Shown here one piece after another: positions 40,784 to 55,059 of a stretch of 64,000 nucleotides of DNA. Under the pieces are notes generated by a model. The model did not search any database and was not told the DNA's origin. It worked only from the letters and a program-made list of their open reading frames with translations. Every line of letters starts with the position of its first letter. The first letter of the stretch is position 1. Both the position numbers and the translations under genes were made by a program. Origin of the DNA: Octopus vulgaris (lineage: Eukaryota); contig OX597815.1 of the NCBI GenBank assembly GCA_951406725.2, positions 99,820,001 through 99,884,000 of the forward strand. Direction: 5' to 3'.

Positions 40784-41255
40784 TATAACATAAGGGGCAT
40801 TAGCCATCTGAATGTGGCTAGGGACAGGGCAGGGCGGTGGGGGTGTTACTGATGCATTTAGCCCCAGGCGATCATCAACGTCACCAGGAGGGCTGACACC
40901 ATCTCGGTGTTCTCTAGCCTGCAAAGGGAGGTCATTCCCCGAAGAAGCGGATGCTACATACGCATGGTAAGCACCGCTTTCTCCGACGAATAACTCCCTC
41001 TACAAGCTATATTTAAGGGTTTTCATAGTAAACACATTTACTGCGTTGATAATAGGCAAATACCTTGAAACCTGGTCCGTATGTAGCATCCGCTTCTTCG
41101 GGGAATGACCTCCCTTTGCAGGCTAGAGAACACCGAGATGGTTGCAGCCCTCCTGGTGACGTTGATGATCGCATGGGGCTAAATGCATCAGTAACACCCC
41201 CACCGCCCTGCCCTGTCCCTAGCCACATTCAGATGGCTAATGCCCCTATGTTATA
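40784..41255. mobile_element. Hammerhead-containing element with ~178-bp near-perfect inverted arms (40784-40962 / 41078-41255)
   Basis: Arms are reverse complements with very few differences; GC-rich; right end joins (TA)n. Confidence 0.85.
41042..41081 (+). ncRNA. Type-I hammerhead ribozyme motif, U3-A8 core variant
   Basis: tgcg-TTGATAA-tagg(caaata)cctt-GAAA-cctgg-TC-cgta; GUC triplet at 41075-41077. Confidence 0.65.
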
Positions 41256-41664
41256 TATATATATATATATATATATATATATATATATATATATATATAT
41301 ATATATATATATATATACATACACACACACACTCACAAATATATATATATATATATTGATAAAGGTCCAAGGTGTACCTTGTAGTACTCCGGCTAGTACT
41401 ACAGAATTAGCATTTGTATGAGAAACCTATATATGTTTATGCTGTTGTTGTTACTCTCATTACTGTTGTTCACATTTAGAACCGGGTCAAGGGTTGTGGA
41501 TTGGTAAAATCGTTAGGGTGTCGAACAAAGAACATTGTGATATGATTTAGCTCTTCATGCATTAAATTAAAATCATGCTCAGGTGAACTTTACGTTTCAA
41601 CCAATCCGCAGATTATATTATTCAATATACCTTTTATTTAGATTTTAAAACCTGGTCTAAGGAT

Positions 41665-41845
41665 GTTTAACTGCCATTTCTTTGCAGAAAATATTGATCA
41701 CATCTATGACGGTATCTGAGATACAATATCCCCTGAGAATAAGCAACAGTTTGACTTGGTATATTAAATCGAATGCTTTACTGAAGTCTACAATTGAGAT
41801 AGCAGTTATTCTTGATACCTTAAAGCACTCACTACTTATTGCAGC
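41665..41845 (-). mobile_element. RTE-like LINE reverse transcriptase fragment (inverted 5' part)
   Basis: AISIVDFSKAFDLI...LLLILRGYCISDTVIDVINI, the RT motif with DFSKAFD. Confidence 0.75.
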
Positions 41846-41854
41846 ATCAAATAC

Positions 41855-42610
41855 AGTAGAAATAACCACATTTCCAAAAGAAAATCGGATATCATGCTTG
41901 CTTCAACTATAATTACTTATACAAATAATGTAGATGATAGAGCTCTTACCGTTAATACTAATCAAAGAGTTTCAGTTACTACTTGAATGCGTTCAGGAAA
42001 CCTCAAAATACGTTGGACTACACGTCAATGACTATAAGACTGAACATTTGTGGTTTTCAATCGACTGAAAGAACACTTAAATCATAAACAGGTGCAAACT
42101 TGAAATATGTAACCGAAAGATCTAAGGAAAACTGTGAAATAAAAATCAATTCTTATTACACGGCAAGGTCAGAAATTAACATGTGCTCAATATTGGATCC
42201 AAATCTTTCTAATGACCTCTATAATAGTTTTGTAGCGTTGCTGTAGAAACCAAAATTGACTTATGGATCTGAGTCTTAGACACCTACGCAAGTAATAGAA
42301 AGCCGAATAAATGGAAGATATACCAAAATATTGAAGAGGGTGAAGAACGTTTCTAGGGAACAACATTTACTGAAGGGCGCATGATATGGAAATATAGCAT
42401 TACTAATGAACGCCATCAAAGAATACAGAATTGAGTTGATGGGGTACAGTTGGAGAAGAAAAATGATATTTTACGTTATCTGTTATTATGATAACCAGTT
42501 GATATAAGAAAAACAGGCAAAGCATGTCGAACAGCAGATACTGGCATACACAAAGCTTGTTGCAGAGATGAGAGAGAACCGAGAAACCTGGAGAGTACAG
42601 ATCAATGGGA
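41855..42610 (+). mobile_element. RTE-like LINE RT 3' portion, decayed
   Basis: ITYTNNVDDRAL...LLECVQETSKYVGLHVNDYKTE and later YGSES*T (LYGSESWT-like) motifs. Confidence 0.7.
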
Positions 42611-42893
42611 TCCAAGTACACACCGCTTTACACACACACACATATAGACCCAAATGCACATACACATGCGCGCACATGCGCACTTACGAATAGGCGTAGA
42701 CATGGTTATGTGGTTAATAATATATTCTCGTCCAGACAAAGGCTGACCAAGACTTTATGAAGAAATCTGTAGGCGAGAATTTGTGGAAACCTGTTTTTGT
42801 ATATAAGAACGTTAGAGTAAATACCAGATTTTAATATATATATATTATATTATATTATATTATATTATATTATATTATATTATATTATATTTA

Positions 42894-42949
42894 AATTCAT
42901 TGGGCTACTGGCTTATTGGTGCACCAATAAGCCAGTAGCCCAATGAATT
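42894..42949. repeat. Perfect 56-bp spacerless palindrome
   Basis: aattcattgggctactggcttattggtg|caccaataagccagtagcccaatgaatt. Confidence 0.95.
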
Positions 42950-42979
42950 AAGCAAGCAAAAGCATATATGCATAGGTAT

Positions 42980-52240: not shown

Positions 52241-52243
52241 TCA

Positions 52244-52456
52244 CGCCAGGAAATTGCATGATAGCATTTCGTCCATGTTTACGTGCTGAGTTCAAATTCT
52301 GTTCAAATTTCGTCCATGTTTACGTGCTGAGTTCAAATTCTGCCGAGGTCGGCTTTACAATTCATCATTTTCTGGTCGATAAAGTAAGTACCAGTTAATG
52401 TAATCGACCTAGCCCCTCCTCGAAATTGCTGTCTTTGTACCAGAATTTGAAACCAT
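52244..52456 (+). mobile_element. SINE family A copy with internal ~41-bp tandem duplication and (TAT)n tail
   Basis: atttcgtccatgtttacgtgctgagttcaaattctg occurs twice; ends aatttgaaacc(att)n. Confidence 0.85.
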
Positions 52457-52544
52457 TATTATTATTATTATTATTATTATTATTATTATTATTATTATTA
52501 TTATTATTATTATTATTATTATTATTATTATCATTATTATTATT

Positions 52545-53250
52545 TTACCTCTTGGTCGTACTTACTCTGGTTGATTCTGAGAGAGAGGTGATAGCAACCA
52601 GTTGTCAAAGGTCTCACAGGGTCTCTTTCCGCAAGCTATAAGCTTTGGTATTTGGATGTCAACTTATTGTAGAAAACACACAACACCTAAGTACCAATTT
52701 CAAAATCCTATCTATACCCAATTGAGAAGCTTTTTTAGGCCTGCTCTGCCTCATGCCAATTCCATTTTTTATGACATAATTCTCGAACCTGGTAGTTAGA
52801 GCTCCGAATGCTCCTACAACTAGTGGGATAACAGTTACTCTCCCCCTTTGCCCACATTCTTGCGATTTCGTCTTTTAGCAGTCTGTATTTCTCCATCTTT
52901 TCCAACTCTTTGTGATCTATGCGTGCATCCCCAGGTATAGCAATATCTGTGATCTTGGTTTCCTTTTCTCTTATTCATTACAATAATGTTTGGTCTCCGA
53001 GCATCGATTAAGGGGATTACATTGGACTGTAACTCCCACGGGATCTTATAATCATTGTTCTTCAGAGACATCTTCTGGTTCATGTTTGCACCATTTCTGT
53101 GCTGTGCCCAGACTGCACTTTACACACAGTCTCCAGTGAATAAACTTAACCACATTATCGTACCCCCTTTTGTAGTGCTTTTGGACCAGCTTGGTACACT
53201 CACTCACAATATGTGAGACTGTTTCGTTTTTGCTGCCACATGTTTACTAC
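52545..53250 (-). mobile_element. R4/Dong-like retrotransposon 3' end (CCHC knuckle plus RLE endonuclease)
   Basis: CGSKNETVSHIVSECTKL...IHWRLC...RRPNII...DIAIPGD...EKMEKY..LKDEIARMW...VIPLVVGAFG; 3' end abuts (TAA)n. Confidence 0.9.
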
Positions 53251-54535
53251 TTTTAATTATTTTCCCTTTCTTGTCACACTCAAAATATTAAGAAATAATT
53301 TGGTAAAAACTGGCAAGATGCCAAGACAACGAACACAATATTATCGAGAAATATATTTTGAAAAACGCTAATAATAAAGTCTAATGCAAATAAAAAAAAG
53401 GAAAGGCATTTGAAATTTAAGTTTACAAATTTTTCGCTTTCTTTTTTTTTTATTTATTTTAACGAAATGACAATCAGAACCAATATTGTTTTCCGTGTAA
53501 TCTGCTAAATTGCAACAAAAATCTTTGTAAATTAATAGACAACGACGATGAAAATTAGTTGCTTGAACTCAACAATGAGCAGCTACGTTCATAAGAGGAT
53601 TATATAAACTTACTGATTAATATGCACCTGGATTTTCAAGACAAAAATCATATTCTATTCATTTTCGTGTAATATTGTATAAAACCTACTTGTTTGTTGT
53701 AATTAATTGTTTGACGTGCCTTGAACATGTTTCTTAAATAGCAGAATACTGGGGAATGCCATATATGTGTGTGTGTGTGTGCGTGTGTGTATGTATGTAT
53801 GTATATATATATATATATATATATATGTATGTGTGTGTGTGTGTGTGTGTGTGTGTGTGTATGAGTGCACGTGTGTATGTTTGTGTGTGTATTTATGCAT
53901 GTACGTTAGTATGTATATATATATATATATATATATATATATATATGTGCGTATGTGTATATATATATGTATATAAAACTTATATATTAGTATATGTGTA
54001 TATATGTATATATATATGCATATATGTATGTATATATATGTGTGTGTGTATGTGTGTGTGTGTGTGTGTATGTATGTGTGTGTGTGTGTGTGTGCCTGCG
54101 TGTTTGTGTGTGTGTACATATATGCATATAGATACATACATACAGAAATAGATACATACGTATGTATCGCCTATATAGAGATTTTTGTAGCTATTGTAGA
54201 TATTCTGCAGTTGATTTCTTCTTGTTTGAAAAAAAAATCTATTCTTTCTGTTATCAGTCAGTATCTTTGTTTAAATAGAAATGCGACCAGCCAAGCACGT
54301 GGCACGTGAGTTATTGATACATTTACACGCTTATTAACTTTGGAACATTATTAAACTCTAACATTTCCTAGAAGAGTCGATGTTACACATCTACTCTTCT
54401 CTCCCTACATTCACTTTATGTAAGTTCCCATCTTGTGACAATTAGATTCTACTTTACCCTTTGCAATCACAGAAGTCTGACTGAACTACTTACCGAATCT
54501 TCTAAGATGTCCTTCAATGAGAAAATTAGTTATGA

Positions 54536-54578
54536 CTAGGCCGATGAAGGACAATGATCCTGAAACACGTGTCCCTAG
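54536..54578 (+). ncRNA. Type-I hammerhead ribozyme motif with palindromic loop 3
   Basis: ctagg-CCGATGA-agga(caatga)tcct-GAAA-c(acgt)g-TC-cctag; all three stems pair perfectly; one core deviation (U4C). Confidence 0.8.
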
Positions 54579-55059
54579 ATGCAGCTCCGGCGGCCGGGGG
54601 TGTTTGTCTCCCCTTCGGAAATGTATATAAGGACACAGGGGAAAATGTGTCAAAGCCATCAGGAGGCGTCGATGCTTCCTAGGGCTATACAGCGGTGGTG
54701 TACCCCACCTAGTGTCACGTTCGTGTTAGATTGACAGTATACAACCATTCTATCGCCCCACCACCGTACATGTCTCTACGAGAGATTTAGAAATTTAGTA
54801 TTTCTTAATATGACTTTTGTTATTTGAAAAGTATATTAATCTTCATGAAATGTTTCATTTCTGATTTTTCAGTTGAATGCAGGAATTACCCAACTTAACA
54901 ATTCATTCAATTCCAGATATCCAATTTTTGAGTTAGTCATCACCAACAGATGAATCCTTATAGAAATATAGGATTGTTACATTCTCGTGCGTTTCTACGG
55001 ATTTCGGAAATTGGTCCTGAAATTTACCACACATTTTACCATTTAGCATGATTTCATCA

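Follow-up and report, generated by a model that had tools for sequence, protein, structure and literature searches.

Related octopus retrozyme families with a common covarying RNA fold, a candidate start region for a Penelope-like reverse transcriptase

Penelope-like reverse transcriptases (RTs) are the closest relatives of telomerase. Hallmarks of Penelope-like elements (PLEs) are a one-ended tail and inverted 5' copies (Craig 2021, PMC8557442), and in an anole PLE copying by the RT begins internally, at two sites past the hammerhead, AT-rich DNA is cut on both strands, and the initial 172 nt of the ORF region are required (Frangieh 2024, PMC11167929). Metazoan non-LTR retrozymes are described as non-coding tandem units of 170-400 nt, each with a type I hammerhead, dispersed in thousands of copies, with mussel families of 350-390 bp (PMC7229834). 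Retrozymes of Xenopus have been presented as PLE derivatives (bioRxiv 10.64898/2026.07.22.740005).

The octopus elements described here resemble the metazoan retrozymes of Cervera and de la Pena (2020) in their non-coding tandem hammerhead units and in a predicted circle that is highly self-paired. They differ in having a covarying multi-family fold and double 3' ends, whereas the available passages of PMC7229834 present individual MFE drawings and describe the repeats as species-specific; those passages contain no octopus or cephalopod family, no covarying multi-family fold, and no fixed double 3' ends. Circular RNA has been shown for metazoan retrozymes (PMC7229834), whereas the octopus families are known from genome sequence.

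The window, a stretch of 64,000 nucleotides of the Octopus vulgaris genome, holds two hammerhead-bearing elements at 41 and 54 kb. Judged by sequence, they are truncated copies of two related, young, high-copy non-LTR retrozyme families, A and B, with tandem unit lengths of 356 and 363 nt, respectively. Aligned over their whole length, the full units are 50-53% identical, far above chance, and the blocks common to both elements are thus attributable to descent from related families. All blocks listed in a preliminary description of this DNA were found at their positions. The family A copy comprises the following features.

40741..41255: family A retrozyme insertion (locus L001), inverted arms in (TA)n
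40741..41043, minus strand: left arm, unit positions 243-325 fused straight to 1-222
41042..41077, plus strand: type I hammerhead, predicted cut after GUC 41077
41078..41125, plus strand: helix I and long rod, 3' strand (blocks 1-2)
41081-41092: atgYagc..ccg block
41100-41104 and 41111-41115: GGGG(A/G) and (T/C)CCC
41129..41145, plus strand: hairpin H2 of the GACAC/GUGUC type, damaged here and intact in the left arm (40895-40911, minus strand)
41146..41180, plus strand: stem-loop H3, with AGCC/GGCU, internal loop, inner stem and variable apical loop (CGTTGATG)
41186-41191: CATCAG
41189..41195, plus strand: long-range helix H6, 5' strand, whose partner is present only in far-end copies (40772-40778, minus strand)
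41222..41237, plus strand: hairpin H5, lying about 14-18 nt before the near 3' end

The left arm ends at the far site (+222) and the right arm, on the plus strand, at the near site (+179). In the left arm, a deletion at a 3-nt microhomology has removed the hammerhead core from between the two strands of helix I; the arm retains the rod 5' strand, H2, H3, H5, H6, H7 and most of hairpin H8. The hammerhead core reads UUGAUAA, in which U3-A8 replaces C3-G8, with a CAAAUA loop on helix II and a short helix III. The family B copy is 5'-truncated at unit position 326, within helix I, and its hammerhead has the core CCGAUGA, a helix II of AGGA/UCCU and a palindromic helix III.

54536..54807, plus strand: family B retrozyme copy (locus L031), with a far end at about +234
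54536..54573, plus strand: type I hammerhead, predicted cut after GUC 54573
54574..54629, plus strand: helix I and rod, 3' strand (blocks 1-2), partner strand missing from the copy
54579-54589: atgYagc..ccg block
54596-54600 and 54609-54613: GGGG(A/G) and (T/C)CCC
54632..54686, plus strand: hairpin H2 (54632-54651) and stem-loop H3 (54654-54686; loop CGTCGATG)
54693..54786, plus strand: helix H6 (54693-54699 with 54760-54766) around H5 (54714-54735)
About 54752, plus strand: near-end site, inside H6, followed by hairpin H7 (54772-54786)

These families have the anatomy of retrozymes. Units of 349-363 nt, within the 170-400 nt range, occur in tandem or partial tandem: we recovered 18 cut-to-cut monomers from the retrozyme loci, and 50 of 119 retrozyme segments exceed one unit length. 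By pattern, a type I hammerhead with its core and helices I-III is present in all seven families, despite which Rfam models run on the elements reported no hammerhead. The longest AUG ORF is 56 aa, the flanks of different copies are unrelated (arguing against an LTR), and the units are high-copy, dispersed and strongly self-paired. Two 3' ends, a one-ended tail in inverted insertions and a microsatellite target, all expected of PLE-mobilized elements, were also found. The element class is a known one; the RNA fold of these families is undescribed. A tRNA-derived SINE was rejected (by simple patterns, a B box in 0/7 units and an A-box-like match in 1/7), as was an autonomous PLE (no ORF with RT and GIY-YIG, and no contiguous ORF in 14 co-located loci). 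Across the window, the output of an Rfam scan and a repeat finder was dominated by microsatellites, and ORFs of at least 150 aa were all low-complexity.

A first look at the genome gave 1330 candidates for family A and 2241 for family B; the 40 scored per family were mostly 93-99% identical, with a spacing of 356 nt (A) or 363-369 nt (B). The genome contains at least eight related families, with C, D, E and F recovered by additional searches. The canonical hammerhead pattern matched 3,239 times (120 in the control), and a retrozyme body accompanied 17 of the first 30 such loci, picked by eye; the H3 hairpin pattern had 2,943 exact matches (0 in the control). Four metagenome matches to the H3 pattern had no surrounding element and were treated as chance. 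Between clades, seven units are 42-59% identical, and at ~50% identity the short blocks GACAC/GUGUC, CUrGGGCUA and GAGAUUU persist and six helices retain their order, size and spacing. Literature searches, limited to the articles themselves, yielded no prior description of these families or their fold. An octopus repeat annotation counts 893 unclassified SINE families and 58 unknown ones among the recently active (PMC13282606), and these may include the retrozymes.

Folded as circles, five natural units gave z scores of -4.1 to -8.6 (25 shuffles each). In the full unit, the predicted partner of blocks 1-2 is sequence that precedes the hammerhead, and the two make up a ~45-bp rod that prolongs helix I. 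When rod strands were swapped between families, the cognate pairing was best in 7/7 (mean of -54.4 versus -26.0 kcal/mol). The conserved, covarying structure proposed earlier holds for H2 and H3, and three helices overlooked at that time also covary between families. In an unedited MAFFT alignment of H2, H5 and H7, 89.0% of 264 cells were paired (reached by 0/500 shuffles; slid controls, 18-47%); two-sided changes occurred in just 4/16 pairs, a number reached by 132/500 shuffles. A table of six anchored helices in 10 copies had 261/278 cells paired versus 234.9 ± 3.1 (0/2000 shuffles, which are not tree-aware), although it is biased toward pairing because the anchors were written after the sequences had been seen. 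H6 and H7 could be extracted in 8 of these 10 copies, and in the D2 copy H6 pairs at 2/6 positions. We conclude that compensatory changes preserve the predicted fold in eight or more families. It has no Rfam family, with best matches at E values of 0.038-8.8, far under gathering scores.

The preliminary description had also assigned this structure to the 5' terminus of the cleaved, uncapped RNA. The motif proved instead to be the body of the retrozyme unit, in which blocks 1-2 are no 5' cap structure but the 3' strand of an extended helix I; the 5'-truncated window copies lack its partner strand. The letters of its GGG/CCC hairpin are present, but both strands lie in the rod of the circular unit, where the hairpin has a probability of 0.00 in 5/6 natural monomers. 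In fragments without the upstream strand, the probabilities are 1.00, 0.38, 0.10, 0.98, 1.00 and 1.00, and at 41078..41125 a local GGGGA/UCCC hairpin is the predicted alternative if the partner is missing. Other details were narrower than supposed. The cgtYgatg loop is confined to families A, A2, B and B' (the H3 apical loop is a 4-nt GAUR/GGUG in A'' and C and GAA-type in D); the ttgatg/catcag pseudoknot reaches at least 4 bp in 1/5 families examined, and sister family A2 has lost it; and ccccacc is a variant specific to the 54-kb copy, the copies L034 and L036 reading CCCCCTAC.

Copies end at two fixed sites, near (~+179 from the cut) and far (+222 to +237), mostly followed by (TA)n. Near ends account for 16/36 (A), 16/43 (B) and 7/23 (C) and far ends for 15/36, 22/43 and 13/23, respectively. 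Two-ended inverted insertions pair a near with a far end in 34/37 cases and two near ends in none; since the B and C queries favored far-ended main arms, only the second arm is unbiased there (near in 23/23). End sequences vary between families but their place in the fold does not, and the near end keeps its position relative to H5 and H6 in families ~50% identical. The near-plus-far inverted pairs are the Penelope "tail" signature. The fixed ends mark the start of copying, which does not imply H2 or H3 as its cause.

The likeness to the pLTR and tail of PLEs (as in the available text of PMC11167929 and PMC8557442) extends to two 3' ends in the region that comes after the hammerhead, a one-ended tail, inverted 5'-truncated copies, AT-rich or (TA)n targets, and templates crossing an intact hammerhead. 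In contrast to PLEs, the octopus retrozymes have no ORF, a tail of 43-59 nt rather than 30-40 nt, and no matching autonomous pLTR among those found; the near end lies ~179 nt past the cut, compared to ~85-92 nt in the anole element. As presented in the Xenopus preprint (bioRxiv 10.64898/2026.07.22.740005), those retrozymes are likewise non-autonomous and PLE-dependent. The evidence there, from vertebrates, is co-occurrence and pLTR sequence similarity, whereas in octopus it is insertion anatomy and RNA covariation, with no sequence similarity to the sampled PLEs.

On balance, we favor the reading that the fold common to these families is the likely site at which a PLE RT-endonuclease, acting in trans, binds and starts at two points; of the earlier suggestions, an RT-binding signal is likely the best reading. 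Tandem units of ~350-365 nt, each with a type I hammerhead, would be transcribed and self-cleave, and by analogy with other retrozymes a unit would be ligated into a circle, the rod holding both ends. This unit is predicted to fold into the hammerhead, the rod and a multibranch junction with H2, H3, H6 (enclosing H5), H7 and H8, of which covariation is the observed counterpart. The PLE protein would then nick a (TA)n target on both strands and prime cDNA on one strand from the near site, in the loop closed by H6, and on the other from the far site past H7. The insertions observed as products consist of partial tandems that are often inverted and carry one end of each type, near and far. The template is likely circular or multimeric RNA. 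The starts of genomic copies are not enriched at the cut (3/119 segments begin 3 nt or less from it, versus 2.3 expected, with main arms chosen to span it), so the RNA that is copied is not a linear one starting at the cleavage site. Tentatively, the H2-H3-H6(H5)-H7 junction might be a template-positioning domain that docks a Penelope RT dimer, with one start site per target strand, and recruits a PLE by shape and not through a terminal sequence common to both; it would be kept superfamily-wide despite half divergence, in a role analogous to telomerase RNA boundary elements.

The genome carries young autonomous PLEs, which have (TA)n ends and open frames of 717 and 781 aa; no autonomous PLE found bears this fold in the terminal repeat. 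Motif and PLE protein match coincide in 24/310 (overlapping) loci, and the 14 inspected by eye are separate insertions. No shared motif appeared in the 3' regions of about six sampled PLE families, in searches swamped by two young families. A GIY-YIG family search, a second PLE protein search, 56 genomic stretches and divergent-family searches yielded no partner PLE, and no PLE ORF lies between motif copies 1-3 kb apart. We found no expression evidence for the retrozymes; contigs of three runs, presumably RNA, match parts of family B and are uninformative on strand, ends or circularity.

Retrozyme circles in general are predicted to be highly self-paired (PMC7229834), the rod sequence covaries freely, and apical loops vary, all as expected if the fold were kept only for RNA handling (a compact nuclease-resistant circle, juxtaposition of ends for ligation, and hammerhead folding), with RT starts set by short local sequence. 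We consider this unlikely, given that the six-helix architecture and short blocks persist at ~50% identity, beyond general needs of compactness, and that family-specific end sequences keep a constant position in the fold. Less probable still is that the blocks form an internal promoter or a host RNP-binding module for transcription or stability of the unit. Hammerhead repeats of newts and schistosomes do have snRNA-type and Pol III promoters, and the octopus units have T4-T5 runs in 6/7 and, ~55-60 nt before the core, a TA-rich block. However, this block is a rod strand that changes together with its partner in family A, the tRNA-type B box is missing throughout with one A-box-like match, and compensatory pairs indicate function in RNA rather than DNA.

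Hammerhead cleavage leaves a 5'-OH, a poor XRN1 substrate, which counts against the exonuclease block, one of three roles suggested earlier for the cleaved 5' end; the others were a cap-independent translation element and a second ribozyme. We regard this group as very improbable. In viral UTRs, cleavage by a type I hammerhead can promote translation without a cap (PMC13725137), and the GGG/CCC hairpin is predicted at ≥0.98 in the free 5' fragment of 4/6 units. Yet the longest AUG ORF per circle ranges from 8 to 56 aa with no common position or ORF across families, the pseudoknot is unconserved, and Rfam covariance models (IRES, xrRNA, second ribozyme, SECIS) gave no match, with ribozymes not rising above noise; genomic copies also lack a start at the cut. 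SECIS, HDV-like, twister and pistol readings, considered from their consensus, had no Rfam support.

A fold that positions a Penelope-like RT would bear on two questions: how these RTs recognize RNA, and which enzyme moves animal retrozymes. Through natural covariation, the superfamily maps a candidate substrate of 350 nt with two base-precise candidate start sites, for which the young autonomous PLEs of the same genome are test partners. The pairing of near with far ends gives genomic support for priming at two sites and on two strands, as observed in vitro with one lizard element.

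Both elements belong to young, abundant repeat families: in the 2.8-Gb, 227-contig assembly searched, first-look candidates numbered 1330 for family A (the 41-kb element) and 2241 for family B (the 54-kb element), and the 40 scored per family were mostly 93 to 99% identical. The ordered blocks named in the preliminary description were all found in place, each set preceded by a type I hammerhead motif (41046 to 41077 and 54541 to 54573). Tandem copies set the unit, or repeat monomer, at 356 nt for A and at 363 nt for B; since the two units align over their full length (50% identity), the shared blocks represent homology between two retrozyme families. 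More searches added A2, B', A'' and C (young) and D, E and F (older), and identity among seven natural units was 42 to 59% between clades and 73 to 81% inside two sister pairs. Genome-wide, the canonical hammerhead pattern occurred at 3,239 places (120 for the reversed control) and the exact pattern of body helix H3 at 2,943 (control, 0); the same body was present, judged by eye, in 17 of the first 30 canonical hammerhead loci. The body is missing from at least four further repeat families that carry a hammerhead (loci L067, L070, L075, L088, L149-L157, L159, L160). In families A and C the core pair C3-G8 is replaced by U3-A8, a double change that would be expected if cleavage is under selection; C3-G8 rescue is described for the hammerhead core in the available text of PMC11167929. 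A scan of both elements and full units of two families against Rfam 15, a comparison proposed earlier, gave no credible match, weak evidence because Rfam also failed to report the hammerheads of these elements.

Circular folding of five natural units from five families (z, −4.1 to −8.6) predicted a hammerhead, a 31- to 48-bp rod extending helix I, and a junction with H2, H3, H6 (which encloses H5), H7 and H8. The predicted family C circle shared this layout with the other families, and the single old D unit had a degraded one. Single-sequence prediction recovered H2 in 5/6 units and at least part of H3 in 5/6; H6 was predicted in 2/6 circles, yet in most isolated body segments. The first two blocks, of which the second was previously read as a local hairpin, form the 3' strand of the rod in the full unit, and the partner strand lies upstream of the hammerhead core, a region missing from the 54-kb copy (which begins at unit position 326) and the 41-kb right arm. 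When rod strands were swapped, the cognate pair was best in all seven families (mean, −54.4 versus −26.0 kcal/mol), the nearest rival (−53.2 kcal/mol) coming from sister families A/A2. GGG/CCC hairpin probability was 0.00 in 5/6 circles and 0.98 to 1.00 in the free 5' fragment of 4/6. This hairpin is present in most families (weak in C) and so may represent a genuine alternative conformer.

In an unedited alignment of 17 copies, 89.0% of 264 cells in H2, H5 and H7 paired (0/500 shuffles as high; slid registers, 18 to 47%). Double changes occurred in 11 cells (reached by 0/500 shuffles) and in only 4/16 pairs (matched by 132/500). With strands anchored by hand in 10 copies, 261/278 cells paired compared to 234.9 ± 3.1 in shuffles (0/2000 reach), the anchors having been picked after data inspection; two-sided change affected 16/30 pairs, a few from one copy alone.

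Clear family-level swaps in the anchored 10-copy table
H2: pairs 4 and 6
H3 outer stem: pairs 2 and 4
H3 inner stem: pairs 1, 3 and 5
H5: pair 2
H6: pairs 2, 4, 5 and 6
H7: pair 1

The proposal of a covarying structure is thus borne out for H2 and H3, which swap pairs between families; conservation does not extend to ccccacc, to the apical loop of H3 or to the suggested pseudoknot, and the pseudoknot partner CATCAG overlaps the H6 5' strand. For most families the H3 apical loop (41160 to 41167 and 54667 to 54674; loci L061, L136, L137) is self-complementary at its centre (UCGA, UUGA with wobble, GAUAUC, CAUCGAUG), which was not seen in family D, and hammerhead helix III is likewise self-complementary. 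Such a loop might conceivably make a dimer contact.

The 3' ends of insertions cluster at two sites, mostly followed by (TA)n: a near cluster at +174 to +181 from the predicted cut (16/36 ends in A, 16/43 in B, 7/23 in C) and a far cluster at +218 to 222 (15/36, A), +232 to 235 (22/43, B) or +234 to 238 (13/23, C). Two outward ends were present in 37 insertions: 34 of these combined a near with a far end (near+far), none had two near ends, and 3, with odd ends and from family A, had two far ends; the second arm was near in 23/23 B and C insertions, for which queries were biased towards a far main arm. The 41-kb element is itself near+far (far end, 40741; near end, 41255). The near end falls within the loop closed by H6, 14 to 18 nt beyond H5, and keeps this position across about 50% divergence. 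Starts at the 5' side were scattered (3/119 within 3 nt of the cut versus 2.3 expected, the main arms having been chosen to span the hammerhead) and 50/119 segments exceeded one unit, so the template would be a circle or an uncleaved multimer, the data fitting either. The 41-kb left arm (minus strand) lacks precisely the hammerhead core, its two helix I strands meeting at 40,960 to 40,965 at a 3-nt microhomology, as though the reverse transcriptase had jumped over the three-way junction. Junctions of inverted copies are concentrated at the CUAG palindrome in helix I (8/54 starts; L034 and family B copies that start at unit position 325 to 327), in part a query-boundary effect.

This anatomy resembles the one seen in Penelope-like elements (PLEs). 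According to the available text of PMC11167929, the anole Poseidon protein cleaves both strands of AT-rich DNA, requires RNA directly 3' of the hammerhead (cleavage being dispensable) and begins reverse transcription at two internal sites, the interval between them forming the genomic "tail"; PLEs in general, by the accessible part of PMC8557442, show partial tandems, inverted 5' copies and a tail confined to one end. The octopus insertions reproduce the two-site/tail pattern, partial tandems and inverted copies. From this likeness and the near end fixed relative to H5/H6, we infer that the junction probably sets the position of a PLE protein provided in trans, with one start site for each target strand. 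That the fold serves circle handling only is a less probable reading, a promoter or RNP module is unlikely, and a translation element, exonuclease block or second ribozyme is very improbable.

Two PLE families are candidate drivers. A young, Neptune-like family (L097, L102, L113) has 781-aa open frames with RVT_1 and GIY-YIG domains; its 3' UTR carries tandem CCAAT/CRE-like repeats, likely an internal promoter. A very young family (L191-L220) has open frames of up to 717 aa, with 150/150 scored copies 99 to 100% identical over 197 aa. A Pfam scan of 657 aa of that frame gave no match; the family is PLE-like by its motifs, its own long-helix-II hammerhead and its two 3' ends about 60 to 65 nt apart, and it targets (TA)n. 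The retrozyme body motif is absent from the 3' regions of both families. Motif and PLE match occurred together in 24/310 (overlapping) loci, and in the 14 inspected by eye they were separate insertions, often on a common (TA)n tract. The window also holds a decayed relative:

56,560 to 58,090, plus strand: 3' part of a Neptune-like Penelope element, 43% to the 781-aa family; it ends in (TA)n and has a minimal hammerhead-like motif of its own near 57,980

All features of metazoan non-LTR retrozymes that can be tested on sequence, as given in the available text of PMC7229834, are present in the octopus elements, and by these features we assign them to that class, with cleavage and circles predicted. 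Their short, palindromic helix III resembles that typical of dimer-dependent metazoan hammerheads, as far as the accessible portion of PMC4209133 describes them. An origin of retrozymes from PLEs is argued in the available part of a 2026 preprint (bioRxiv 10.64898/2026.07.22.740005). A search of mainly open-access article text returned no account of these families, nor of any retrozyme body that covaries. We conclude that the kind of element is known, the families are new, and the conserved fold is undescribed in the literature searched. This conserved fold opens PLE template recognition to testing.
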